A stretch of 63,384 nt of DNA, the filler included, from Actinomycetota bacterium (lineage in GTDB: Bacteria > Actinomycetota > CADDZG01 > JAHWKV01 > JAOPZY01): NCBI GenBank assembly GCA_025963875.1. It is 7 parts of 7 records of this genome, joined end to end, with 100 filler letters (N's around TTAATTAATTAA, not from the genome) between each part and the next. Parts side by side here need not be neighbours in the genome. Positions count along the whole stretch, not along the records: positions 13,378 to 22,441 come from JAOPZY010000257.1; 6 more parts are not named here. One strand, written 5' to 3'. Numbering within the stretch: the stretch's first letter is position 1; each line of letters begins with the position of its first letter. The position numbers and the translations under genes were made by a program. The notes beneath the pieces are model-generated. The model saw only the letters and a list, made by a program, of their open reading frames with translations, searched no databases and had not been told where the DNA came from. Positions 12,468-25,946 of this stretch are shown here, piece after piece.

Positions 12468-12968
12468 TCAGTGGACGATTGCCGCTTTCACGCCGAGCCC
12501 TTCGAGGCGGCCCAGTAGGACTTCTGGCGACTGCTCGAGGACACTGGCGAGCGCCCGGAGGTCGTCGAAGCGGATGGTGAGCACCCTGCCGTTGAAGTCG
12601 CCCCGCTGCATCTGGACCATGTTGACGTAGCGCTGCAGGACGGTGGACTCGGGCCCCTCGGACTCGAGGAGGCGCACGAGGTCGATCCGCACCCTCCCGG
12701 GCCCGCCGCCCGGGCTGTGGCTGTCGCCGCCCGTCTCCTCATCGGCATCGCGCGGCAGCAGCTGGTCGACCGGGACGCCGTAGAAGCGGGCGAGCCGCTG
12801 CAGGCGGGGCACGGAGATGCTTCGTTCCCCCCGTTCGTAGGCGCCGAGCACCGACGCCTTGAACTCGTCCCGCGAGGTGATCTCCACGTCGTGGAGCGAA
12901 AGGGCTTTCTGGAAGCGCACATTGCGCAGCCGCTCCCCAACTGCCTGTGCATAGTTCACCGTCGTCAT
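12468..12968 (-). CDS. bldD: BldD-like XRE-family regulator with c-di-GMP-binding C-terminal domain
   Basis: HTH: GERLRNVR..LSLHDVE...SVLGAYERGERSISVPRL..LA.FYGVPV. CTD carries the intact RxD-x8-RxxD signature (RGD-FNGRVLTI-RFDD). Confidence 0.88.
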   Translation of the reverse strand: MTTVNYAQAVGERLRNVRFQKALSLHDVEITSRDEFKASVLGAYERGERSISVPRLQRLARFYGVPVDQLLPRDADEETGGDSHSPGGGPGRVRIDLVRLLESEGPESTVLQRYVNMVQMQRGDFNGRVLTIRFDDLRALASVLEQSPEVLLGRLEGLGVKAAIVH

Positions 12969-13090
12969 CGACCCAGGCTCGCTTCTGCTGGTCACGCTCC
13001 GAAGCCGATTGTACCCGTTTCCACCGCAGAGAGTGGGCACAAAAGCCTGGAATGACTCGTTTGGTCCCTGATTGGTAGGCCGTCAACAAA

Positions 13091-13277: not shown

Positions 13278-13377
13278 NNNNNNNNNNNNNNNNNNNNNNN
13301 NNNNNNNNNNNNNNNNNNNNNTTAATTAATTAANNNNNNNNNNNNNNNNNNNNNNNNNNNNNNNNNNNNNNNNNNNN

Positions 13378-13665
13378 GCGACCCTCGAGCCGTCGATCCC
13401 CAAACGCAAGGGCCACGTCTTCGTCGACGCCAACCAGAACGCCAAGGGAAAGACCCTCGTCGCGCCGTACTCGGTCCGGCCGTACCCGGGAGCGCCGGTT
13501 TCGATGCCGCTGCGCTGGGAGGAGCTCGACGGGGACTTCCTGCCCGAGCAGTTCACCATCGCCACAGCTTTCGACCGCATCGAGGTGGTGGGCGACCTGT
13601 TCGCCCCCACCCGGATGCACCGCCAGGACCTGCACCCCGCCCTGGAGCAGCTCCGGGGGCCATGA
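13378..13665 (+). CDS. LigD primase-polymerase domain, C-terminal fragment (contig start)
   Basis: Manual translation: RKGHVFVDANQNAKGKTLVAPYSVRPYPGAPVSMPLRWEEL. Confidence 0.88.
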   Translation, partial: ATLEPSIPKRKGHVFVDANQNAKGKTLVAPYSVRPYPGAPVSMPLRWEELDGDFLPEQFTIATAFDRIEVVGDLFAPTRMHRQDLHPALEQLRGP

Positions 13666-13685
13666 GCCCGTACAATCGCTGCGCC

Positions 13686-14723
13686 ATGAGCGAACTCACC
13701 TGGCCCACCGTGCTCAGCCGGTTGCTCTCCGGCCATGACCTCGCACAGCAGGAGGCCTCCTGGGCCATGGAACGCATCATGTCGGGCGAGGCCGCGCCCG
13801 CCCAGATCGGCGCCTTTGTGGCCGCCCTGCGGGCCAAGGGCGAGACCGTCGAAGAGATCGCAGGACTGGTTGCCACCATGCGGCGCCTCGCGCTCAAGGT
13901 CCCGGTGGACGGTCCCGTCGTCGACACCTGCGGCACGGGGGGCGACCGTGCCGGTACGGTCAACGCCTCGACGATGGCCGCGTTCGTCGTAGCGGGCGCC
14001 GGGGGCAAGGTGGCCAAGCACGGCAACCGCGCAGCCTCGAGCGCATCCGGATCTGCCGATATCCTCGAGGCGCTCGGCGTCCGCATCGACCTCGGTCCCG
14101 ACGCGGTTGCCACCTGCATCGGGGAGGTGGGCATGGGGTTCTGCTTCGCCCCGATCTTCCACCCCTCCTTCCGCCACACGGCAGTCGTACGGCGCGAGCT
14201 CGGCGTCCCCACGGTCTTCAACTTCCTCGGCCCCCTCACGAACCCCGCCGGGGCGCGCCATCAGGCCCTCGGCGTCTCGGACCGGTCGATGGCGCCGAAG
14301 ATGGCCGAGGTCCTGTCCCGGACCGGCAGCGTGCATGCGCTCGTGCTCCGGGGGTGCGACGGCCTCGATGAGATCACCCTGTCCGGGCCCACCGAGGTCT
14401 GGGAGCTCCGGGACGGGGCCGTCACCGAGTCGGTGATCGATCCGGCCGAGCTGGGGATTGCGAGAGCGCCGAGCGAGGCGCTCAGGGGCGGGGGCCCCGC
14501 CCAGAACGCGGAGCTGGCCCTCGAGGTGCTGGGTGGAGCTCCGGGGCCGTGCCGGGACTTCGTCCTGATCAACGCGGCGGCCGCCCTCGTGGCCGTAGAC
14601 CTGGTTCAGAGCCTCGCAGAGGGCCTTGCGGCGGCTGCGGAGTCGGTTGGCTCCGGGCGGGCGCTGGGGTGTCTCACCCGCTTGAGGGAGCTTTCCAACC
14701 AGCTCGCCGCTCCCCGTCCGTAG
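13686..14723 (+). CDS. trpD: Anthranilate phosphoribosyltransferase
   Basis: DTCGTGGD, KHGNRAASS.SGSAD, FNFLGPLTNP, GLDE. A TACAAT -10 lies just upstream. Confidence 0.96.
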   Translation: MSELTWPTVLSRLLSGHDLAQQEASWAMERIMSGEAAPAQIGAFVAALRAKGETVEEIAGLVATMRRLALKVPVDGPVVDTCGTGGDRAGTVNASTMAAFVVAGAGGKVAKHGNRAASSASGSADILEALGVRIDLGPDAVATCIGEVGMGFCFAPIFHPSFRHTAVVRRELGVPTVFNFLGPLTNPAGARHQALGVSDRSMAPKMAEVLSRTGSVHALVLRGCDGLDEITLSGPTEVWELRDGAVTESVIDPAELGIARAPSEALRGGGPAQNAELALEVLGGAPGPCRDFVLINAAAALVAVDLVQSLAEGLAAAAESVGSGRALGCLTRLRELSNQLAAPRP

Positions 14724-17700
14724 CCGCGTCCTGGTCCATGGCTGCGTCCCTGGCGTTGCGCCGCGCCCGCTTGTGGCCGTTGGATCCGTGGCTGCCGTTG
14801 CCACGGCCGTGGCCGTTGGCCCCGCCTCGGGTTCCCGTTCCTGCTCCGGTTCCCGATGGCGTCGCGGATTGGCCGACGGAGGGGAACGGCCGCTGTGACT
14901 CTGCCCGGCCCATCGCCATGGCGGCGGAAGGGAAGTGGCCCCTGCCGTCGTACACGAAGTAGCGCGGGCGCCATTCCGGCTCGAACATCTCGTCGACACG
15001 CCAGGGGCGGCCGGCCTGCTCCGGGCGGGAGAGGTGATCGAGGAGCCAGCGCTGGGCACGACCCCCGAGCCCGTCGGCGTCGCTCCGGGCGAGCTTGCGG
15101 CTCATCACCGAGAAGTTGAGCCCGAGGTAGTGGGTGCCCCCCGTGCCAAGGTGCAGGATCGTCTCGACGAGGATGGCCTCCACGAGGCGGGGAGGGATGT
15201 CGCGGGTGGTACGGCGCACCTGGTCGAGGGTGTAGCCGCCGATGGCGGGCGCCGGGACGAACTGGCAGAAGGCTGCGGGGTGGTTGTCCGGCCCCATGGC
15301 CACCGCGAGAAGCAGGTTGCGGTCCTCGGCGTCGAAGAGGCGGCCGAGGGTCATCGCGAGCCGCTGCTCGCATTCCGGCCGGCGGACCTCGGTGGCGAGG
15401 CCGCGCAGCGCGGACTCGAGATAGGCGTCGAGCCGTGCGGGGTCGAGGAACTCCACCCGGTAGCCCGCCTCCCTCACCTGCCGGACGGCTGCCCGCAGGT
15501 TGTCCGCCCGGGCCGGCTCCACGAAGCGGCGGCAGTCGACGATCGCCTCGTCCCCCACGTAGAGCTCCCGCATCCCGGAGCGCCGGTAGACCGGCAGCCA
15601 GTCATCCGAGGCACCGAGCACGGCGACGGGCCAGCCACGCCCGTCGGCGTAGCGGTGAAAGGCGTCCCAGGCGGCATCCCGCTCCCACGTGGGCCCGACG
15701 GGATCGGGTGACACCAGGCAGACCCGCCCGGTGACCGAGTGGGGCACGACCGTGTCGCCGTGGAAGAACAGCTCCTTGTCCTGGCGCAGGGCGAACGAGG
15801 AGAGGGAGTCGCCGGCGTGGACCGCGACAATCTCCCGGGCGCGCCCGATGCCGCTCCCGAGGGCACGCCGGGTCCCGTAGGCGGGCCGGAAGAACGTCCA
15901 GGCGGCGAGGGCGACGAGGCCGAGGCCGACGCCGACCATGGCCGAGGTCATGAAGTCGTTGACGTGGTCCGGCAACGCGATCGAGGTGATGCCGACCAGG
16001 CGCATCGTGACGGCGGCCAGGGCCTGCCCGAGCGGCAGGTGGGGATGCCGCACCCAGATGTGGACCACGGCAGTCCCGGCGAGGATGGCCGCCGCCGTGC
16101 CGGCCGCCGCAGTGATGAGGGCGTGGCGTACGCCGCCCCGTGCTGCGCCACCCCGGAAGGCGGACCGCTGAGCCGACAGGTAGCCGGCGACCCCCAGGGC
16201 GATGACCGCGGCCCCCACCTCGACCCCCTTGGCGAGATGGAAGAGGGCGGAGCCCACCAGCAGCCCCAATGCCGTCGCCCAGGCGCGGCGGCCGCCTCGC
16301 CGGACGCCGGCGGCCAGGAACAGCAGGCCCATGCCCGCCACCGCCACCAGTGCCCCTGCGAACTCGGGGATCGCCAGCGGCACGACGGAGCGGAGCCACT
16401 CGATGCGCTGGAACACCGGAGGCATGACCGCGGACACCAGGTTGAGGAGGCCCACGACGGCGATGGCGGTCGCGGCCCGGGCCCGCACCCGTCGTTGATG
16501 GCCCGCCTTGTCCGCAGGCGGCGGCCAGACGGCACCACCAGGCAGCGAGGCGACCACGCCGGGCCGGGCATCGGACGGCTGGCGTCGGACGTTGAGGCGC
16601 TCCAGGGTGGACCCGGCCGGCATCGGCTGGCGACCGCGCACGAGGCGGACGTGCAGGTCCGATCCCGCCTCGAGCTCGATCCAGGACGCCTGGCGAACCG
16701 GCCGGAAGATCGGGAGTGGTCCGATGCGTGCCCTGCACTCCTCCAGCACCTCCGCGCAGCAGCCGGTGTTGGCGTAGAAGCCGTCCCCGAGCGGGGTGAG
16801 CTCGGCAAGGTGCGAGTGGCCGGTGATCATGCCGGCGTAGCCGTCGCGGATGCGGGCAAGGGCGTCCACCCGCACGGAGTCGTTCCGCCCGCGGCGGGGG
16901 TCGAGGGCGGCGTTGGCCACCGCCTCCCACACGGCGTAGGCCGCCAGCGCCAGGGCTGCAACGACGAGCACCAGGTCGGCGACGACCAGGCCTCCGAGGA
17001 ACAGGAACCGGCCGGGCCAGTGCGCGATGCGCGCCCCGATGGCGGTCCTGGAGAACAGGCTGAGAGTGAGGGGGAGCTTCAGCAGGAGGGCCAGGAGGAA
17101 GGGGAGCACCAGCCACTTGAGGTGGCGGGCGAATCGCCGGTACGCCAGCCGGGATGCGATGAAGCGGGGGAAGGACAGCGGGTCCGGCAGGCTGTCGGCG
17201 TCGTTGAAGTACGCGTACTTGTGGATGGCCGGTGTGAGCTGCTGGACGACCCGGGTGCCGAGGGGGACGTCGAGTGGGTCCCGGGGATCGATGTAGGAGT
17301 TCGCAGAGTCGAGCCGGTGGCCGTGCTCCACCTGCACCCGCCGGACCCCCTGCCCGGTGTCGATCTTGAGTTCGAGGGCCAGGGCAAGCTCGCAGCAGAA
17401 GGCCTCCGTGACCGCGGCGGCGGCCCCCGAGTCCCAGGCGAGGCGGGAGTCGTGGTTCCCGAGCAGGTAGACCACCCGGCGGCCCTCGCAGGCGGCGAAG
17501 GCCCGGACCGCGCCTGTCAGGCGGCCCTCCTCCTCGAGCACGGTGCGCACGTCCCGGACGTCGCCGGCGACCAGTTCGAGGACGTCGCCCGCCAGGACAA
17601 GCACCCCCGGCCCCGAGGCGCGCTCGATGGCCGCGGTCAGATCTTCGACGGGGCGGTGGGAGCCGTGGCCCCCGAGATGGATGTCGCTCGCCGCCAGGAC

Positions 17701-17754
17701 CTGGCCGCCGGCCGGTACGTGGATGACGAGGAGGTCTGCGACGCCGGTGCTCAC
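14674..17754 (-). CDS. Fusion: calcineurin-like metallophosphoesterase + TM bundle + MprF/LysX-type aminoacyl-PG synthase domain (DUF2156)
   Basis: SDIH, GD, GNHD, HGH, GHSH, then about 6 TMs, then DSLSSFALRQDK, DPVG, GDEAIVD, NLRAAV, LGLNFS, FEPEWRPRY. Confidence 0.85.
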   Translation of the reverse strand: MSTGVADLLVIHVPAGGQVLAASDIHLGGHGSHRPVEDLTAAIERASGPGVLVLAGDVLELVAGDVRDVRTVLEEEGRLTGAVRAFAACEGRRVVYLLGNHDSRLAWDSGAAAAVTEAFCCELALALELKIDTGQGVRRVQVEHGHRLDSANSYIDPRDPLDVPLGTRVVQQLTPAIHKYAYFNDADSLPDPLSFPRFIASRLAYRRFARHLKWLVLPFLLALLLKLPLTLSLFSRTAIGARIAHWPGRFLFLGGLVVADLVLVVAALALAAYAVWEAVANAALDPRRGRNDSVRVDALARIRDGYAGMITGHSHLAELTPLGDGFYANTGCCAEVLEECRARIGPLPIFRPVRQASWIELEAGSDLHVRLVRGRQPMPAGSTLERLNVRRQPSDARPGVVASLPGGAVWPPPADKAGHQRRVRARAATAIAVVGLLNLVSAVMPPVFQRIEWLRSVVPLAIPEFAGALVAVAGMGLLFLAAGVRRGGRRAWATALGLLVGSALFHLAKGVEVGAAVIALGVAGYLSAQRSAFRGGAARGGVRHALITAAAGTAAAILAGTAVVHIWVRHPHLPLGQALAAVTMRLVGITSIALPDHVNDFMTSAMVGVGLGLVALAAWTFFRPAYGTRRALGSGIGRAREIVAVHAGDSLSSFALRQDKELFFHGDTVVPHSVTGRVCLVSPDPVGPTWERDAAWDAFHRYADGRGWPVAVLGASDDWLPVYRRSGMRELYVGDEAIVDCRRFVEPARADNLRAAVRQVREAGYRVEFLDPARLDAYLESALRGLATEVRRPECEQRLAMTLGRLFDAEDRNLLLAVAMGPDNHPAAFCQFVPAPAIGGYTLDQVRRTTRDIPPRLVEAILVETILHLGTGGTHYLGLNFSVMSRKLARSDADGLGGRAQRWLLDHLSRPEQAGRPWRVDEMFEPEWRPRYFVYDGRGHFPSAAMAMGRAESQRPFPSVGQSATPSGTGAGTGTRGGANGHGRGNGSHGSNGHKRARRNARDAAMDQDAATDGERRAGWKAPSSG

Positions 17755-17777
17755 CTGGGCGGATCTCCTGCCTCCCC

Positions 17778-17833
17778 AGGCGCCCCTCAGGGCGCCGGGT
17801 TCTTTTGTCGGAGGCGCCTCTCAAGGCGCCGGG
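17778..17833 (+). repeat. Two tandem copies of a dispersed REP-like palindrome GGCGCC-(C/T)CTCA(A/G)-GGCGCC-GG
   Basis: Copies at 17779-17796 and 17813-17830. Further copies at 18532, 22286 and 31331 (reverse). Confidence 0.75.
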
Positions 17834-17946
17834 TGTTCGTCTGTAGGCAAAAGCTTAACCCGCAGGACAAGCGGCCTGTGTCCGCACGGTTGGCGGTCTA
17901 TTTCCCTTGCTTCTTGGTGGCTCCCGTCGGGTGGTAGCGTCGGGGG

Positions 17947-18351
17947 GTGAAGCGACTGCGATGGATCCTTGTTGGCGCCGGCGCGATGGGCATCACCGCG
18001 CTCGTCGCGGTTCGCTTCCGTAACTTCCGTACGGAGGCGCCGCCCTCGCTGAACGGGCACCTGCCGCTGGAGCGGCGCGCCCATTCGGATCCCGAGGCCC
18101 TGCGGGCGCTGGTGGATGGCTCGGCGTTGCGGGTCGGCCTTGACCTCGATCGCCTGAAGGAGCTCAAGTCCGCCAACTTCAGGCCACTCATGGAGTACCT
18201 CGGCTACATCCAGGTGCAGCGGGGCGGCAGCGAGACGTTGCTGTTCGTCCGCTTGAAGGACCTCGACGAGCTGGCAGACCTGGCGGGCCAGAGCCGCGAG
18301 GAGTTCGTCAAGCAGTTCAAGAAGCTGGGTGTCCTGCTCTCGATGAACTGA
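17947..18351 (+). CDS. Membrane-anchored stand-alone BldD C-terminal-like domain protein
   Basis: N-terminal hydrophobic helix. Residues from RVGLDLDRL to KLGV align with the CTD of 12468-12968. An extended -10 (TGGTAGCGT) ends 6 nt before the GTG, which suggests a leaderless mRNA. Confidence 0.78.
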   Translation: MKRLRWILVGAGAMGITALVAVRFRNFRTEAPPSLNGHLPLERRAHSDPEALRALVDGSALRVGLDLDRLKELKSANFRPLMEYLGYIQVQRGGSETLLFVRLKDLDELADLAGQSREEFVKQFKKLGVLLSMN

Positions 18352-18393
18352 GGCACGCTGGACCGCCGGCCCGGTCTGCGCCGAGGCCCACCC

Positions 18394-18438
18394 AGATTCC
18401 GTCAAAAAGGGCCGCTGGCACACTTTTTGACGGAATCT
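18394..18438. repeat. Perfect 16-bp inverted repeat with 13-nt spacer
   Basis: AGATTCCGTCAAAAAG (18394-18409) / CTTTTTGACGGAATCT (18423-18438). Confidence 0.9.
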
Positions 18439-18531
18439 ACCGGCCAGCCAGACCAAACTTTTTTGGTGCCGTTCAAAAACAGGCCATTTTCTGTCGGTAC
18501 CCCTCCGTATCGTCGTTCTTGCAAGCCCCCA

Positions 18532-18551
18532 GGCGCCCCTCAAGGAGCCGG
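18532..18551 (+). repeat. REP-like palindrome copy
   Basis: GGCGCC CCTCAA GGAGCC GG (one mismatch). Confidence 0.7.
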
Positions 18552-18583
18552 TGATGCCGGAACGAGCGACGAAGGAGCGGAAG

Positions 18584-18901
18584 ATGGACACGCAGCGGAC
18601 CGAAGGACCTGGAGCCGAACCCGGCTTCGAAGGGGTGGAGGCCAACGGCATCCGGCTGGCCACCACGATCGACCCCCGGCTGGCAGAGGTCTGGACCACC
18701 CTGTTTGCCGCCGACCTCGACGCCGCCGACCTCTCGGAGCAGGTCGGCTGGTTTCTGCGGATGGCGTACCTCCGGGGCTACCACGACGGGCTCTGCGAGC
18801 CGGATGCAGGATCGCTGTACCGGGACCTGGGGATACGGGTGCCGCCGCGTCGCCGGACCGCCGCCACACGACCGGGCACCACCCACCGAAGGGAGGCATA
18901 G
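18584..18901 (+). CDS. Hypothetical protein
   Basis: AAGGAG SD before ATG 18584. Protein-like composition (FLRMAYLRGYHDGLCE). Abuts the next gene. Confidence 0.65.
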   Translation: MDTQRTEGPGAEPGFEGVEANGIRLATTIDPRLAEVWTTLFAADLDAADLSEQVGWFLRMAYLRGYHDGLCEPDAGSLYRDLGIRVPPRRRTAATRPGTTHRREA

Positions 18902-19087
18902 ATGATCATCGACTGCCGTGACTGCGAGCTGCACGAGACCGAGCACTGCGAAGACTGCTTCGTCATGGCGCTGCTTGCGCCCCGCAACCGCCCCGTCGTC
19001 ATCGATCCCGAGGAGGAGGAAGCCTTCACCAACCTGCAGGACGCCGGCCTGGCGCCGCCGCTCAAATTCCGGCGACGGGCCGGCTAG
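18902..19087 (+). CDS. Small Cys-rich metal-binding protein (CxxC-x7-CxxC)
   Basis: MIIDCRDCELHETEHCEDC, GGGAGG SD. Confidence 0.75.
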   Translation: MIIDCRDCELHETEHCEDCFVMALLAPRNRPVVIDPEEEEAFTNLQDAGLAPPLKFRRRAG

Positions 19088-19199
19088 GGCGTCGCAGCGA
19101 GGAGATTGACCGGCTTGTTCCGGTACAGATGTCCGGTGCTTGAAAACCGCATGTCAACCGGCGTTTGATTACCCATCGTCGGCACGACTGGGGTGGGGT

Positions 19200-20516
19200 T
19201 TGCAGAAGCTGTATCTGGTGGGGTTCACAACTGATCTGGGGGGTTTGGTGCTCTCCCGCCAAAAGGGCGTGAAGAGCGGCGGCTTCGTCGTCGATCTCGA
19301 CGATCAGTTGCGGGCAGCTCTCGAAGAGGCCTACCGGCGCCACAAGGAGGGCGGCTCCCGCGGCGAGCCTGTCCCGGCGCGCCCCCCCGAGGTCCCCCCG
19401 GAGTCCGAGAAGCCGCCGGACGATGCGGCCGGCGAGTCGAGGCCCCGCAGGAAGCCGGGCCGCGGCGTGCTCACGCCGAAGGAGATCCAGGCCGAGTTGC
19501 GGTCGGGCAAATCCGTCCAGGAGGTCGCCGAGATGGCCGGCACCGACACCTCCTGGATCGAGCGGTTCCTGGGCCCCATCCTCGCCGAGCGCAAGGGCAT
19601 CGTGGACGCCGTGATGACCGGCGTCATCTCGCATCCACGGCGAGGCAGGTCGAGCTGCAACGTGGGACAGGCCATCGTCGCCAATCTCAAGGAGCGCAAG
19701 GTAGCGATCTCCCCCGAAGACCTCGAGGAGGGCTGGAGTGTGGCCCGGAACAAGGGCCACTGGGAGGTGACCTTCCATTATTCGCTCCGAGGGCAGGACA
19801 AGCAGGCCCGGTTCGTCTACGAGCCCGAGAGCGGTGTGACGGCCATGGATGCGGACGCGTCCGTGATCGGTTGGCGGCCTCCGCCCTCCAAGCGCGCCAG
19901 CGCCGAAGGTGGTCCCGAGGGGGACCCCTCTTCGGCTCGTCAGGCCCCGGCGGAGGCAGCGGCTGCAGCTGCGGCCAAACCAAGGGCGAAGCCCAAGGCT
20001 GCCCCCCGCCGGGAGGTCGCGGTGGCCACAGCCGTTTGGGGTGCCACGAAGGTCACGCCGCCCACCGCCCCGGCGCGCCGGAGCAACTTCATCGGGCCCG
20101 GCAAAGCCGGCGCTGCGTCGGGACCGTCGAAGCCGGCGGCCATGTCGCCGGCAAAGGCCGCAGGCAGGGCGAAGCCTGTCCAGCCTGTGCAGCCGGCCAA
20201 ACGCCTGCCGGGCGCCGCCGACGACCGTCCCGTCTTCGCACGCAACTCGTCCAGCCCCCGCCCGAAGCGGCTCATCACCGTCGCCGACGACGATGCGGAC
20301 TGGCGCTCGGCGCTCGCCAAGACGCGGGCGAAGAGAAAGGGCGTCCCGGGCCCCCAGCCGCAACCAGGCGCCTCCGGGCCGCAACCCGGAGCCCGTTCGC
20401 CGAAGCCGGGGGTGGCCGCGCCGAAGCCACCGCCGCAGCCCCCAGCCCAGACCCAGGCGCAACCTGCCCGTCCCCAGCGCAAGCGACTCCCCGACGACTG
20501 GATGGTAGGGGAATAG
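19200..20516 (+). CDS. sepH: SepH-like (DUF3071) septation protein with long Pro/Ala/Lys-rich tail
   Basis: KLYLVG..DLGGLVL...LDDQLRAAL...LTPKEIQAELRSGKSVQEVAE.AG....IERFLGPILAER fits the DUF3071 HTH. Start inferred at TTG 19200. Confidence 0.78.
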   Translation: MQKLYLVGFTTDLGGLVLSRQKGVKSGGFVVDLDDQLRAALEEAYRRHKEGGSRGEPVPARPPEVPPESEKPPDDAAGESRPRRKPGRGVLTPKEIQAELRSGKSVQEVAEMAGTDTSWIERFLGPILAERKGIVDAVMTGVISHPRRGRSSCNVGQAIVANLKERKVAISPEDLEEGWSVARNKGHWEVTFHYSLRGQDKQARFVYEPESGVTAMDADASVIGWRPPPSKRASAEGGPEGDPSSARQAPAEAAAAAAAKPRAKPKAAPRREVAVATAVWGATKVTPPTAPARRSNFIGPGKAGAASGPSKPAAMSPAKAAGRAKPVQPVQPAKRLPGAADDRPVFARNSSSPRPKRLITVADDDADWRSALAKTRAKRKGVPGPQPQPGASGPQPGARSPKPGVAAPKPPPQPPAQTQAQPARPQRKRLPDDWMVGE

Positions 20517-20577
20517 CCCGCGATCTCCCCAATCTCCTCGCCCATTTGCGCCCGAAGCGGCTACGATTCGCTGCAGA

Positions 20578-20979
20578 ATGAAGGTGCTGGTGTACGTCGA
20601 CGGATCCGACGCAGCCATGCGGGCCGTTGATCGCGCCATCACGCTGGCCGTCTCCGGAGCCGACGTCCTGGCGCTGCACGTCTACCCCCCGAGCCTCGAC
20701 CGGGGACTGGTGAGCGCCTTCGAGATCGAACCGGAGGACCTCGACGCCGCGTTTGCCCGGAGGGTGCTGAGTGCCGTGGTGGAGCGCTTCGCGGCCCGAG
20801 GTCTCGTCGTGGCCACCCTTGTCCTGATCGGTCACCGCACCGAGATGATCTGCGACTACGCGTCGTCGCACGGCTTCGAGCTGATCCTCGTCGGGTCGTC
20901 CGGCGCCTCCCGTATCGGCGTGGGCCTGGCGGAGGCGGTCCGCCGCCGTGCCAGGATGACTGTCGAATCCGTCGCCTAG
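20578..20979 (+). CDS. Universal stress protein
   Basis: VLVYVDGS..AMRAVDRA, LHV, LILVGSSG. Confidence 0.85.
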   Translation: MKVLVYVDGSDAAMRAVDRAITLAVSGADVLALHVYPPSLDRGLVSAFEIEPEDLDAAFARRVLSAVVERFAARGLVVATLVLIGHRTEMICDYASSHGFELILVGSSGASRIGVGLAEAVRRRARMTVESVA

Positions 20980-21085
20980 CAGCTGCCCGTGGGCGGTCTC
21001 GCAATCAAGTGTCTGTCTGGCCGCGCTCTACGCGGTCAAACAGACACAAGATTTCCCGAGCCTCGCAAGAACCGACCAGGGCGCG

Positions 21086-21709
21086 CTACATCCTGCTCAG
21101 GAGCTCCGCCTTCTTGGCCTGGAACTCGGCGTCGGTGACGAAGCCCTTGTCGCGCAGCGACGCCAGCGCGGCGATCTGGTCCGGGATGCTCGTCTCCTTC
21201 TGCTCGACGCGCGGCCCGGGGACCCGCAGGCGGTTGTTCTCCATCTCGGTGTAGACGAGCTGTTGCGCCCGGTCCGGGTGTGGGATGCGGGGAAACGTGT
21301 CCTGCCCCCGCTCGCCGGCGGACTCGATCATGAGGTCGCCCGTGCCCACCATGCGCTCGAAGAGGGTCTGGTGGTAGGAGATGTCGTTGATCCGCTCCAG
21401 GGGGATCTCGGTGCCGTGCTTGCTGAGCACCCCGGTCCGCACGATGAGCCGGTCGCTCGTGAGGACGAAATGCGTCGTGCGCCATTCAGCGAACCTCACC
21501 AGGAACGTGACCAGCCACATGACCGTGAGGGCGCCGAGGCCCAGCAACGTGTACGTCTGGGCATTGCCGTTCAACAGGATGGTGGCCGCCACCGCTCCGG
21601 CGAGGATCACCACGGCAAAGGACCCCAGCGGAGCGAAGTACCACCAGTGCGGGTGCAGGTCGAAGGCGATCAGTTCGCCGGGATTGAGCAGTTTTTTCGG
21701 GTAGGACAC
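21086..21709 (-). CDS. Bacterial PH-domain (bPH_2) membrane protein with C-terminal SHOCT
   Basis: HPHW, 2 TMs, TSDRLIVRTGVLS, IPLERINDI..QTLFER, LASLRDKGFVTDAEFQAKKAELL. Confidence 0.88.
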   Translation of the reverse strand: MSYPKKLLNPGELIAFDLHPHWWYFAPLGSFAVVILAGAVAATILLNGNAQTYTLLGLGALTVMWLVTFLVRFAEWRTTHFVLTSDRLIVRTGVLSKHGTEIPLERINDISYHQTLFERMVGTGDLMIESAGERGQDTFPRIPHPDRAQQLVYTEMENNRLRVPGPRVEQKETSIPDQIAALASLRDKGFVTDAEFQAKKAELLSRM

Positions 21710-21715
21710 GGCCCG

Positions 21716-22147
21716 TCAGGCCCCGGCTTGGGAGAGGTCGGGTACCGGCTCGGGGAAGCGGGTGTGCAGCACGGAGTCGAAGTGCTCGGCCAGCCGCTGG
21801 TTCGTGTCCAGCATCACCATGAACGCCTGCTTGGGCAGGACGAGGAGCTCGCAGTCGCAAACGGCGTTGGCCCGGCGGCGGTGGACGGTGTTGAGCAGCA
21901 GGGAGATCTCCCCGAAGGAGTCTCCGGCCCGGAGGCGTGCGACCTCCTCCCCGGTCTCGGCCCAGATCACGACCTCGCCCGACAGGATGATGTAGAGGGC
22001 ATCGCCGGGCTGGCCGGGCTCGAAGATCAGGCTCCCGGCTCGCCAGAACAGGTTGAGGCTCTCGCCCACGATGGCCAGGAGGCTGCGCTCGTCCAGCGGG
22101 GAGAAGTCGGGGACTCCCCGCAGCATTTGCACGAGGCTGTGTGGCAT
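21716..22147 (-). CDS. Stand-alone cyclic-nucleotide-binding domain protein
   Basis: IFEPGQPGDALYIILSGEV...GDSFGEISLL....RRANA. No output domain. Confidence 0.88.
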   Translation of the reverse strand: MPHSLVQMLRGVPDFSPLDERSLLAIVGESLNLFWRAGSLIFEPGQPGDALYIILSGEVVIWAETGEEVARLRAGDSFGEISLLLNTVHRRRANAVCDCELLVLPKQAFMVMLDTNQRLAEHFDSVLHTRFPEPVPDLSQAGA

Positions 22148-22285
22148 TCCCGTCTCCCCTCCGACACCGACGAACGCCTGCAAACCTTAGACGGATCCGG
22201 ACAGATCCGGCCTCGGGCATCGGCCCTGGGTGCCTCGACTATCCTAAATGGCACGCAGGGAGGTTGTCCGAGACGACGCACCCGA

Positions 22286-22305
22286 GGCGCCCCTCAAGGC
22301 GCCGG
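22286..22305 (+). repeat. REP-like palindrome copy
   Basis: GGCGCC CCTCAA GGCGCC GG. Confidence 0.75.
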
Positions 22306-22326
22306 ATAATAAAGAAGGAGCACGCA

Positions 22327-22441
22327 GTGTCCTACTACCAGGTGCCGCTGCGGATCGCCCAGATTTCTGACGTCCACGCCGGAGAGGTCACCTTTCAGCA
22401 CGACGTCATGGCAAGGGCGATCGAGACCATCAACCGCATGC
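22327..22441 (+). CDS. Metallophosphoesterase (CpdA/Icc-like), N-terminal fragment
   Basis: AAGGAG SD and LRIAQISDVH. Truncated by the gap. Confidence 0.7.
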
Positions 22442-22541
22442 NNNNNNNNNNNNNNNNNNNNNNNNNNNNNNNNNNNNNNNNNNNNTTAATTAATTAANNN
22501 NNNNNNNNNNNNNNNNNNNNNNNNNNNNNNNNNNNNNNNNN

Positions 22542-25500
22542 GAGGGGCTTCGAGACGTAGTCGTCCATGCCGGCCGCCAGGCAGCGTTCGCGGTCGCCCG
22601 CCATTGCGGCAGCGGTGAGGGCGACGATGGGGGTGTGCCGGCCGGGACCCTCGAGGGCCCGGATGCGCCGCGTCGCCTCGTAGCCATCCATGTCGGGCAT
22701 CAGGCAGTCCATCACGATGGCGGCGTACGGGCTGTGCCGGACGGCTTCGACTGCCTCCGAACCCGAGGAGGCCATCTCGACCCGGTAGCCGAGGCTTTGC
22801 AGCAGCCCCTTGCCAACCTCTCGGTTGATCTCGGCATCGTCCACCAGCAGGATGCGGGCACCCTCGCCCAACGAGGGTGCCGCCCGGTCGGCGGCGTGGT
22901 CCCCAGCGGGCCGGGTGCCGCGCGGGGCGCCCTCGCCGTCACCCACCTCCACAGCCGGGAGCGCGACCTCGAACCAGAACGTGGTTCCTGCGCCGGGCTC
23001 GCTGGTGAATTTGAGGCTGCTGCCCATGAGCTCAACCAGCTGACGGCAGATGGCCAGACCGAGGCCGGTGCCACCGAAGCGGCGGGTGGTCGACGCGTCG
23101 GCCTGCGTGAAGGGCTCCAGGAGGCGGTCCTTGCTGGACGGGTCGATGCCGATGCCGGTGTCCCGGACCGCGAAGCGCAGGTCGCCGGATGCGGCCTGCC
23201 CGATGGTGAATTCCACACCGCCTCGCTCGGTGAACTTGACGGCGTTGCCCAGGAGGTTGATGAGGACCTGGCGAAGCCGCACCGAGTCGCCGCGGACCCA
23301 TCCTGGGACACCCCGTGCCACCTTCAGGGTGAGGCTGAGACCCTTGTCGTTGGCCGGCGACGAGAGCAGGCTCACGACGCTCTCCGCGGCGGCGAGCAGG
23401 TTGAAGTCCACCTCCTCGAGCTCCAGCTTCCCGGCCTCCATCTTGGAGAAGTCGAGGATGTCGTTGATGATCGTGAGGAGGCTCTGGCCGGACTCGCGCA
23501 GGGCCAGGACGCGGCGGCGCTGGCCGGGCTCCAGGTTGCCGTTCAGGAGGAGTTGCGACATCCCGAGCACGCCGTTCATGGGGGTCCGGATCTCGTGGCT
23601 CATGTTGGCAAGGAACTGCGACTTGAGGCGGGACGCCTCCAGGGCCTCGTCGCGGGCTGCAGCGAGCTGGTCCTCGCGCTCGAGGAGGGCGGCTCGGGCG
23701 CGCTTGCGCTCGCTGATGTCCTGGCAGATGGTCGCGATGCCGGCAATCCTGCCCTCGGTGTCCTCGATCAGCGAAAGGGTGACGGAGACGTCCACGGACG
23801 ATCCGTCCTTGCGGAGGCGGACGGTCTCGTATTGCTCGACGCCGAGTCCACGGGCGACTCGCCCCCGGAGGGCAGTTTCCTCGTCCCGGCGCTCGGGGGC
23901 GATCAGCACCTCGATCGAGGCGCCGATCATCTCGGCTGCCGTGTAGCCGAAGAGGACCTGCGCACCGGGGTTCCAACTGGTCACGATACCGTCCAGCGTC
24001 TTGCCCAGAATGGCCTCCCGGGACGCCTGCACGATCGAGGCGAGCCGTGCCTGCGCCTCCTGGGCCTGCCGGCGGCCGGTGATGTCGCTCAGCACCGAGA
24101 TCCACACCGGTCCGAACTTGGGGAGGTCGTGGGCGGTGACGTTGACGGCGCACCAGAATGGCGTGCCGTCCTTGCGGATGTTGTGGACCTCCCCTCGCCA
24201 CGCGCCATTCGTTTGGAGGGCTTCGATGATGGCCGAGGCTGTCTCCTCCGGCGAGGCGGCGCCGGGAGCGTTCATGTTGTGGACAGGGCGTCCGATCAGT
24301 CCACCGGGCTCGTAGCCGAACATGGCGTCGAGGCTGCTGTTGCCATAGGCGATGGTGCCGTCCTGTTCCCGCACCACGACGACGCCCTCGGACATGTTGG
24401 CCGTGATCGCGCTGAGGAACTGCACCTCGTCGGCGGCACGGCGGCGCTCGGACACGTCGGCGAAGGCGGTGATGCTGAACTCGATGGAGCCGTCGCCGGC
24501 CAGCACAGGCGTGCCCCAGACCTCCACCGGCACGGTGGCGTTCGGCGTGCGCAGCTCCATGTCGTCCGCGTGCGAGGTCTCGCCAGTCAGGGCGCGGACC
24601 AGCGGCATGTCCGCAGTCGGGTAGAGCTTGCTGGTGCCCGCAACGTAGGCCTGGTACACCTCGGCAAGATCGTCGGGGGCTGCCCCGGGCACGACACCGC
24701 GGCCGAGCAGGCGCTGGGCCTCACGGTTGGCGTAGTGCGGGTGCCCGTCCGGGGTGGCGACGAAGACGCCGATCGGCATCGCATCCAGGAACTGCTCCAG
24801 GCGCTGGCCGGCTTCGACCTGGCTGCCCGCCAGCTGGCGCTCGCTGGCTGCCAGCCTCCGGCTGCGCCGGCTCAGGAAGGTCCCCAGCGCCGCCGCGAGG
24901 GCGATACCGAGCATGCCGAAGGTAAAGGCAACCCAGCGCAACCGCGCCGCCAGGCGGTCCGCGCCGCCCATCACCTCCGAGCGCGCCTGCTGGACGAGGA
25001 TGCCCAGGTTCTGGCCGGGGATCGGCTCGTAGGACTCGATGGTGAGCCTCCGGTAGAAGGGGCTGTAGATGAGCGTGGTCACGGACTTCCCGGCCGCAAC
25101 GATCGCAAGGTTGGTGGGAGACAGGAGGGGTCCGCCGTTGTCCTCCGAGCCCGCCACGACCATCCCCGCCGGCGTGACAAGGAACTTCTCCCCGGTCTGG
25201 CCGAATGCAAGATCTTCGGGTTTGCCGAGGAGTTGCGTGACGTCCACGTCCACCACGAGCCTGCCAACCTCGGGGCCCCGCACGCCCCCGATGCTGACGG
25301 CGACCTGGCGCGAGCTCTGGGTGCCTGTGGTGATCGTGTCCCCGAGCGTGATCGGCTGGAGGTGGGTCCCGGTTACTGCGGTGGGGTTCACGCCCGGAAG
25401 CGAAGCCATTGCGAGCAGGTTCCCCGCTGCGTCGTACATCCGGACGTCCCCGAAGGGACCGGCCATGAGGATGTTCCTGGCGCTCTGGCTCGCCACTTCC

Positions 25501-25790
25501 CTGGCCACGTCGGGGTTGTGTGACTCCAACGTGGCGAGGAGGCCGGAGCCGCCTGCTGCCGAGGCGACGATCCGGATTGCATCATCCCAGGCCTGCTGCT
25601 CCTGAAGGCTCGTGGCCTTGCCGATCGCCGCCATGCCGCCGAGTGCCCGGTTCCTGACTTCGCTTTTCGCCACGCCGGATGCCCAGAGCAGGCTGACGAC
25701 AGGAAGGGCGGTGGCGGCGAGGACGACGGCGGCCGTACGAAGTCCAACCCGCATCCTTCGAGGATCGTTCACTGCAGTCCGTGGGTTCAC
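22542..25790 (-). CDS. Hybrid sensor histidine kinase (extracytoplasmic Cache-like, 3 PAS, HisKA, HATPase, REC); 3' truncated
   Basis: FLANMSHEIRTPMNG, NAVKFT, DTGIG, GGTGLGL, REC LLVDD...MDCLMP.MDG...KP. Confidence 0.95.
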
Positions 25791-25946
25791 AAGGATCTCG
25801 TCCTTCCTCAGGGATGCAGGGTGATGAGGATCCCGATGGCGGCACGCAGGCAGCATGTCTTCTCATCCTCGACCCAGGACCGCAGGGCCTCCATAGGCCA
25901 AATGAACCATTTTCTGCCACCGCCGATGTGGCCCGCGCCCGGCGAC

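Follow-up and report, generated by a model that had tools for sequence, protein, structure and literature searches.

An HTH-less BldD-type C-terminal domain behind a predicted membrane anchor, upstream of sepH, as a candidate c-di-GMP receptor in deep-branching Actinomycetota

Tetrameric c-di-GMP is known to be bound by a single protein domain, the C-terminal domain of BldD. To date that domain has been described in one transcription factor alone, where it serves as the module for c-di-GMP-driven dimerisation. In the account given in PMC4151990, BldD recognises the guanines through R114, D116, R125 and D128 and contacts the phosphates through K84 and R130, with I110, N118 and S123 contributing to the site as well. 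The same source describes the ligand residues as solvent-exposed and reports that binding in DRaCALA was lost when either motif carried a charge-swap mutation. According to PMC5499655, the BldD variant D116A takes up c-di-GMP at motif 2 with a Kd of 1.6 uM and 1:1 stoichiometry, behaves as a monomer in SEC and as a null allele in vivo, and the variant D128A shows no c-di-GMP binding. A functional analogy, and no more than that, is offered by RsiG, the c-di-GMP-armed anti-sigma factor of Streptomyces (PMC7005675), which also lacks a DNA-binding domain and binds its partner under the control of c-di-GMP. Unlike the protein described here, RsiG has an unrelated fold and is soluble.

Here we report a protein that carries a BldD-type C-terminal domain without the DNA-binding part. 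Its gene lies on a contig that occupies ~13378-22441 of the window, by which we mean the whole stretch of DNA analysed (63,384 nucleotides). Unlike BldD, the protein has no Xre-type HTH, in place of which stand an N-terminal membrane helix, as predicted, and a linker (Table 1). The protein sequence quoted in an earlier, sequence-only reading of the window is the exact translation of this open reading frame. The assigned start is supported by a same-genus relative, in which an ATG preceded by the same upstream sequence occupies this position. With a domain dN/dS of 0.12-0.56 in comparison with 8 relatives, the open reading frame is judged to be a real gene under purifying selection. Contigs from RNA libraries overlap positions 18212-18534 (3 differences) and 18165-18292 (11 differences, hence a relative); they are at most a weak hint that the gene is transcribed, as DNA carry-over is possible. 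A scan for sigma-70 promoters between 17600 and 19200 returned 0 sites and Rfam gave 0 matches at E <= 0.1 between 13400 and 22400. The pattern TNACNCWGNGTNA, which we take to be the BldD box, matched the window twice when 1 mismatch was allowed, against 5.4 matches expected, and neither match lies close to the anchored gene.

Table 1. Positions of the features discussed, counted along the whole window.
Feature	Coordinates	Strand	Description	Basis
Canonical BldD-like regulator	12468..13040	-	HTH_31 + BldD-like_C; other contig, same genome	Pfam, alignment A5
Anchored BldD-C-domain gene	17947..18351	+	134 aa, GTG start, stop included	ORF list
Uncharged hydrophobic stretch WILVGAGAMGITALVAV	17962..18012	+	residues 6-22	Kyte-Doolittle scan, flank charges
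Linker	18031..18117	+	residues 29-57; variable low-confidence part, then ERRxxSDPEAL, short helix 49-57	
BldD-like C-terminal domain	18127..18348	+	residues 61-134	Pfam, PDB profile search, Foldseek, VIA
Motif region R92-G-G-x7-R102-L-K-D105	18220..18261	+	= BldD R114-G-D116-x8-R125-Q-D-D128	HMM alignment
Dispersed-repeat palindrome CGTCAAAAAG-N13-CTTTTTGACG	18400..18432	.	perfect; just past stop codon	
Conserved non-coding motif TTTTCTGTCGGTACCCCTCCGTATCGTCG	18487..18515	+	upstream of orf116	kept in 8 compared order intergenic regions
orf116, conserved hypothetical gene	18551..18901	+	relatives at same position	tblastn
orf61	18902..19087	+	61 aa; four invariant cysteines, C-x2-C-x7-C-x2-C	
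sepH homologue (DUF3071)	19140..20516	+	PF11268, E 6e-24	NCBIfam SepH, 99.7 bits vs cut-off 40

The relationship to BldD had been proposed from a hand alignment with the BldD-like protein encoded elsewhere in the window, counted as 25/69 identities, and BLASTP of the two proteins gives a figure close to it (26/73 identities, one gap, E 5e-8). Pfam assigns residues 63-130 to BldD-like_C (PF21179), covering positions 2-70 of the 70 in the profile (E 1.5e-8; 34.8 bits for a cut-off of 27), and a profile of the family run against PDB sequences retrieves five distinct BldD C-domain sequences only (E 1.6e-11 to 4.5e-11). The BldD equivalog of NCBIfam, NF050110, scores 28.9 bits against a cut-off of 250 and is matched over model positions 79-154 only. 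Pfam finds no HTH family in the anchored protein, as the sequence-only reading had held, and residues 1-60 consist of the hydrophobic helix and linker.

An AF2 model made from alignment A4, which holds 77 family members, has a mean pLDDT of 79.7, rising to ~90 within the domain. It places a first helix at residues 2-28, followed by a linker of low confidence (29-48), a short helix (49-57) and the domain. The pLDDT of the linker is 54-70, and in alignment A1 its residues E42, R43, R44, D48 and P49 each show conservation of 90% or more. In the model the domain comprises a strand (62-66), two helices (67-72 and 76-92), a second strand (98-102), two further helices (103-113 and 117-127), in line with the topology published in PMC4151990, and a last strand, an order of beta-alpha-alpha, beta-alpha-alpha and a closing strand with the invariant end ...LGVLLSMN. 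Foldseek against the PDB returned 11 matches at E <= 0.001, all of them BldD C-domains, with the nearest unrelated structure at E 0.7. These matches have a target-normalised TM score of 0.70-0.87 (mostly 0.82-0.87) and an rmsd of 1.1-2.1 A (mostly 1.1-1.6) over ~70 residues, at 34-36% identity. VIA, which is independent of Foldseek, ranked 4oaz first among 48,161 chains with a Z of 10.8, the runner-up reaching 5.1. Homology with the BldD C-terminal domain is therefore borne out by Pfam, the PDB profile search and the predicted fold alike. The anchored domain shares its fold, its Pfam domain and ~35% identity with BldD of Streptomyces venezuelae and Streptomyces coelicolor (4OAZ, 4OAY, 5KHD, 2MC4), and differs from it at the C-terminus, which is a conserved strand ending in ...SMN where BldD has a short helix.

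To compare ligand sites, BldD residues were placed on the 77 members of A4 through an HMM alignment to the BldD chains. The equivalents of R114 and R125, here R92 and R102, are arginine in 77/77 members, that of D128 (D105) is aspartate in 76/77 and that of I110 (I88) is isoleucine in 68/77. Elsewhere the site departs from BldD. The position of K84, R62 in this protein, is arginine or lysine in 47/77; the position of D116, here G94, is glycine in 24, glutamate in 23 and aspartate in 19 of 77, and within the protein's own order it is G, E or D by genus; the position of R130, here D107, is D or E in 71/77; and the position of S123, here F100, is phenylalanine in 76/77. The changes at R130 and S123 mean that the binding surface differs from that of BldD. 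Motif 2, RxxD, is kept as R102-L-K-D105, whereas motif 1, RxD with an 8-residue spacer, is replaced by R92-G-G94 with a spacer of 7, and the phosphate-contact pair K84/R130 by R62 and D107. The sequence-only reading had described RLKD as kept and RxD as having become RGG. This is a correct reading of the motif in this protein and its sub-lineage but does not extend to the whole family, in which 42/77 members have D or E at the third position, and the x8 spacer quoted with it is usually 7 residues in anchored proteins. On the alignment, the equivalents of R92, R102 and D105 stand out as invariant surface residues in a site whose remainder is changed in a family-specific way.

The anchored protein resembles BldD in keeping the equivalents of R114, R125 and D128, and its genome, like that of BldD, has c-di-GMP enzymes (17 GGDEF and 8 EAL matches); it is unlike BldD in the spacer of 7, G for D116, D for R130, F for S123 and its placement in a separate clade. 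A closer likeness is to the half-loaded intermediate of BldD(D116A) (5TZF, 5TZG), the best Foldseek match, in which the motif 1 Asp is also absent and motif 2 kept. That mutant is, however, an engineered, non-functional repressor, while the anchored protein is natural and conserved, and D107, F100 and the x7 spacer are changes that the mutant lacks. Co-folding of the C-domain of the window's BldD (112-190) and anchored residues 58-134 with four c-di-GMP gave 0.23 and 0.31 for a mark of 0.32, in a single job without controls, and speaks neither for nor against a mixed complex.

The close homologues of the protein number 62 (79-182 aa), all with PF21179 and most without a name. The domain itself is already covered by Pfam, and one source names a homologue by its BldD-like_C domain. 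When 1.84 billion representatives were searched with a profile, 76 proteins reached E <= 0.001; they are 70-215 aa long besides one spurious 1584-aa match, and no other fused architecture was found among these 76. Some 55 of them follow a common plan of a short basic tail, a hydrophobic helix, an Arg-rich stretch, a variable linker and a domain ending in ...LGVxxSxN, and HTH-type BldD appears in the search only from E ~5e-6 downwards. Maximum-likelihood analysis places 76 anchored-type domains on one side of a branch and 13 HTH-type domains on the other (support 100/98, length 1.03), the inner detail of the tree being rough because it rests on 75 columns only and the bootstrap had not settled. 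We conclude from these sequence comparisons that the anchored proteins are a distinct, old family and a paralogue of the BldD C-domain.

The genome of origin (3.84 Mb in 273 contigs, 94.6% complete) holds exactly two BldD-like_C domains, in the canonical BldD and in the anchored protein. Within its order the anchored protein is present in 23/26 other genomes, the three without it being 97%, 78% and 64% complete. Genomes flagged as unpublished (G007, G009, G019, G038 and others) are included in the counts; leaving out G007, G009 and G019 gives 20/23 for the order, and the conclusions do not depend on unpublished genomes. In a sister family of the same class 1/14 genomes was matched, weakly (E 5e-7) and inside a BldD-type locus (G038 C24). 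Among 401 genomes drawn evenly from the phylum, strong matches (E <= 4e-26) occur in only 10, of which six belong to the same order, three to one other family and one to a further family. About 100 more of the sampled genomes give matches at the level of the C-domain only, at E 9e-15 or weaker. Long open frames of Nitriliruptoria with mid-range scores had raised the possibility of a third architecture; two of three were examined, both from these ~100 genomes, and proved to be ordinary BldD with HTH and C-domain. Twelve public MAG records represent a distant subgroup; 9 bear the label Nitriliruptorales, Nitriliruptoraceae or Nitriliruptoria, and one of these is identical over 3312 bases to a locus of the second family. 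Near-identical DNA is found in soil metagenome runs from 15 studies. Family counts throughout are not independent observations, as members are related by descent.

The canonical BldD-like protein of the window matches HTH_31 and HTH_3 in Pfam, retains the motif RGD-x8-RFDD (alignment A5) and scores 153.8 bits with the NCBIfam BldD model, below the equivalog cut-off of 250; the true start of its gene is probably internal to the open frame. The two genes lie on separate contigs (C154, C156; N run 13278-13377) of one binned genome, and the sequence-only reading had allowed that these might come from different organisms. This worry can be set aside. Both genes occur together in 18/26 genomes of the order, one of them an assembly of 7 contigs that is 97% complete, and the pairing is therefore not an artefact of binning. 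A BldD-type gene (NF050110, E <= 1e-10) is present in 36/41 relatives and 21/26 genomes of the order, the five genomes lacking it being 84-92% complete. Co-occurrence with bldD is seen in 18/23 own-order carriers of the anchored gene, and a BldD-type gene is likewise present in 10/10 carriers of the phylum sample.

In its own order the anchored gene belongs to the run trpD, anchored gene, orf116, orf61, sepH. Only in the window's family is this run interrupted, by a Metallophos/LPG-synthase fusion gene that lies on the opposite strand. The same-strand run from the anchored gene down to sepH, which had been noted from the window, is present. The synteny with sepH is also kept in related genomes. 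sepH follows on the same strand in 10/13 other own-order loci examined; of the three exceptions, two are contigs that end early and one is a same-genus genome with a different next gene, whose contig ends after 1 kb. In Nitriliruptoria 9/12 loci have sepH on the same strand, 1.2-2.3 kb downstream (one match weak, E 1e-3), the remaining three having short flanks, and a coiled-coil/NYN-like gene lies between it and the anchored gene. The anchored gene lies 0.8 kb (own order) to ~2 kb (Nitriliruptoria) upstream of sepH. SepH has no homology to the anchored protein, and it is widespread in actinobacteria without one, as the phylum sample and the account in PMC7968930 indicate. In a sister-family genome without the anchored protein, the NYN-like gene, an orf61 homologue and sepH stand in a row, and the anchored gene is therefore taken to have joined an older sepH neighbourhood in certain lineages only. 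With the SepH model, sepH was detected in 1/5 sister-family genomes, a count that the sensitivity of this first look possibly limits.

The intervening genes resist classification by family. orf116, the true start of which is probably the ATG near 18584, has no family in Pfam or NCBIfam, and its Atlas matches score under 0.9; orf61 likewise has no family in either database, and none of its 23 homologues has a Pfam family. The palindrome behind the anchored gene occurs with exact arms 23 times in the genome, whereas the reversed control occurs 0 times, and contigs of other loci match the window in the palindrome stretch alone; it looks like a terminator. The conserved motif upstream of orf116 may be the promoter or operator of an orf116-orf61-sepH unit. 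Together, the palindromic repeat and the conserved motif suggest that the anchored gene and sepH possibly form separate transcription units.

Whether the domain can meet c-di-GMP depends on the side of the membrane on which it lies. The N-terminal hydrophobic helix proposed from this one protein is kept in 65/77 family members; the 12 without it include several fragments and at least four that are apparently full-length. The uncharged stretch is 17 residues long here (median 18, range 17-23 in the 65 members), follows a tail with a median of 5 residues, and in this protein lies between MKRLR and RFRNFR as a predicted single membrane span. Under the positive-inside rule, the more basic flank of a membrane helix faces the cytoplasm. 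Compared with the part before the helix, the 15 residues after it contain more K+R in 54/65 members, the same number in 8 and fewer in 3, and the first 6 residues past the helix contain at least 2 K or R in 65/65 (mean 3.1). When acidic residues are included, the net charge is higher on the C-side in 36/65, equal in 14 and lower in 15. By this rule the anchored domain is likely to be cytoplasmic. The opposite arrangement, in which the helix would act as a signal peptide or an N-in signal anchor and the domain would lie outside the cytoplasm, out of reach of c-di-GMP and BldD, draws on the three positive charges of the N-tail MKRLR, which resembles a signal n-region, and on the net-charge counts, which favour a cytoplasmic C-side weakly. 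We consider it improbable given the basic residues behind the helix throughout the family, the absence of a small-x-small cleavage site past the helix, where RFRNFR comes directly, and two members in particular: P0064 has zero residues ahead of the helix and RRRR behind it, and in P0073 the hydrophobic stretch is preceded by no charged residue and followed by RRRQRR. The known relatives of the domain, BldD, are moreover all cytoplasmic.

The reading we prefer, at a probability of about 0.5, is that of a membrane-tethered c-di-GMP receptor which would use motif 2 together with R92, the nucleotide bridging two domains, and whose bridging would probably be weak and half-loaded in the G94 lineage. 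In this model a single-pass protein, with a short N-tail and one hydrophobic helix, would hold its cytoplasmic domain on a flexible Arg-rich linker. The guanine bases of c-di-GMP would be read through the equivalents of R125 and D128 (motif 2) and of R114, and c-di-GMP would bridge two anchored domains at the membrane surface in the manner of BldD. Because glycine occupies the position of BldD D116, the protein should act like the D116A form. The G94 form would accordingly take up one c-di-GMP per subunit at ~1.6 uM and dimerise weakly, as published for D116A, and loading may be more complete in the RGD and RGE members. Against this model count the missing Asp of motif 1 (G94) and the spacer of 7 instead of 8, as well as the one same-genus genome with a different gene directly downstream. 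The conserved placement of the gene a short way ahead of sepH points to an input into cell division or development. That the protein is a c-di-GMP-dependent tether, in which the rising messenger would glue the anchored domain to BldD monomers, and so sequester the master repressor at the membrane, or to a second copy at the division site, and so couple c-di-GMP directly to SepH/FtsZ-driven septation, is a rather improbable extension.

Other roles for the domain can be weighed on the same evidence. It may be that the domain binds no ligand and serves as an adaptor, a winged-helix-like module that tethers SepH, FtsZ or the small neighbouring proteins, with the conserved R/R/D residues contacting protein. 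The sepH linkage is conserved in two distant lineages, SepH acts on FtsZ at the division site (PMC7968930), and the family has invariant features that BldD lacks, namely F100, D107, the ...SxN end and ERRxxxDPxAL. This is nonetheless unlikely, given that the residues kept in 76-77/77 members are exactly the base-reading residues of BldD and that the orf61-sepH pair exists without the anchored protein in the sister family. A role as an anti-BldD, in which c-di-GMP would bridge the anchored domain to a BldD C-domain and so hold BldD monomers at the membrane, or in which the two would compete for the nucleotide, with repression by BldD weakened either way, is distinctly less probable than that. 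In its favour, BldD C-domains are described in PMC4151990 as touching almost only through the nucleotide, and a mixed pair would therefore need compatible motifs only; R92, R102 and D105 are invariant, the cognate BldD retains RGD-x8-RFDD, and a BldD-type gene accompanies the anchored gene in 18/23 own-order and 10/10 phylum-sample carriers. Yet the x7 spacer, G94 and the change of R130 to D make the half-sites unequal, the half-loaded state of the D116A type dimerises weakly even with itself (PMC5499655), and the anchored gene is linked to sepH rather than to bldD. Some 100/401 sampled genomes, furthermore, have a BldD-type gene and no anchored protein, and BldD hence does not need it. Finally, the altered site could accommodate another guanine nucleotide, be it cGAMP, (p)ppGpp or a differently posed monomer or dimer of c-di-GMP. 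Consistent with this, systematic differences affect the residues that contact the phosphates and those that flank them but spare the Arg/Asp pairs that read guanine, the altered site comprising the x7 loop, F100, D107 and an extra Arg-rich ERR motif. Positive evidence for a different ligand is, however, absent and GGDEF and EAL domains are plentiful in the genome, and we consider this prospect improbable as well.

The claim that the architecture is undescribed is supported: an anchored or HTH-less protein with a BldD C-domain was not found in the full-text literature, subscription journals and supplements lying outside that search. What is new is a conserved second architecture of the BldD C-domain, in which a membrane anchor replaces the DNA-binding domain, the base-reading residues are kept and the gene adjoins sepH. 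Should the tether reading be true, it would represent a second, DNA-independent use of the domain that binds tetrameric c-di-GMP; should the protein not bind c-di-GMP, it would show the re-use of a nucleotide-binding fold. The natural variation between D, E and G at motif 1 would make half-loaded and fully loaded binding comparable in native proteins. The anchored family is thus a candidate new class of c-di-GMP effector in deep-branching Actinomycetota.

The palindrome 3' of the anchored gene, which encodes a protein with an N-terminal hydrophobic helix and a BldD-like C-terminal domain, is a dispersed repeat (see table). Across the 3.84-Mb genome, CGTCAAAAAG-N13-CTTTTTGACG occurs in 23 copies with exact arms, against 0 for the reversed control, and the copy beside the anchored gene is the sole stretch matched by metagenome contigs from other loci. 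The repeat could be REP-like in nature, or it could act as a terminator or operator. The GC-rich hairpins surrounding the gene look like a further small repeat family, because RNA-library contigs join or match GGCGCCCCTCAGGGCGCC-type hairpins in other contexts.

Features around the anchored gene (window coordinates)
Feature	Position	Strand	Remark
1026-aa fusion gene	14674-17754	-	inserted between trpD and anchored gene
GC-rich hairpins, GGCGCCCCTCAGGGCGCC and variants (three, similar)	17779-17796, 17813-17830, 18532-18549		both sides of anchored gene
Palindrome CGTCAAAAAG-N13-CTTTTTGACG	18400-18432		22 further places in genome
Non-coding motif TTTTCTGTCGGTACCCCTCCGTATCGTCG	18487-18515		upstream of orf116
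orf61, 61-aa protein	18902-19087	+	directly before sepH
PAS-rich hybrid histidine kinase	22494-25856	-	start on next contig

The fusion gene, whose insertion is seen only in the window's family, combines a calcineurin-like phosphoesterase with a multi-span membrane region and the C-terminal domain of a lysyl-phosphatidylglycerol synthase. The stretch 20578-22183, on the 3' side of sepH, encodes a universal stress protein, a membrane protein of bPH_2+SHOCT architecture and a cyclic-nucleotide-binding protein that stands alone. Elsewhere, a Nitriliruptoria MAG carries BldD-C-domain genes as a tandem pair (locus L034, 1498-2541, equivalent to L026), of which one encodes an anchored protein of 175 aa with RRGD...RDAD and the other a 155-aa paralogue with RGL...REVD and no clear membrane helix.

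The motif TTTTCTGTCGGTACCCCTCCGTATCGTCG is kept in all eight of the compared loci of the window's order. It has no Rfam match and does not fit sigma-70 spacing; a role as promoter or regulatory site of orf116-orf61-sepH is possible.

In P0050, a 125-aa protein from a 647-base metagenome contig, residues 1 to ~32 of orf61 are linked to the part comprising the conserved ERR linker motif and BldD C-domain; P0050 is either a natural deletion/fusion variant or else an assembly chimera. The orf61 protein itself has an invariant MIIDC at its start and a basic tail; its four cysteines, spaced C-x2-C-x7-C-x2-C, are likewise invariant, and no Pfam family was found for it. It directly precedes sepH both in the window's order and in the sister family of the same class. 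A possible role for orf61 at the sepH locus is that of a small metal-binding partner.
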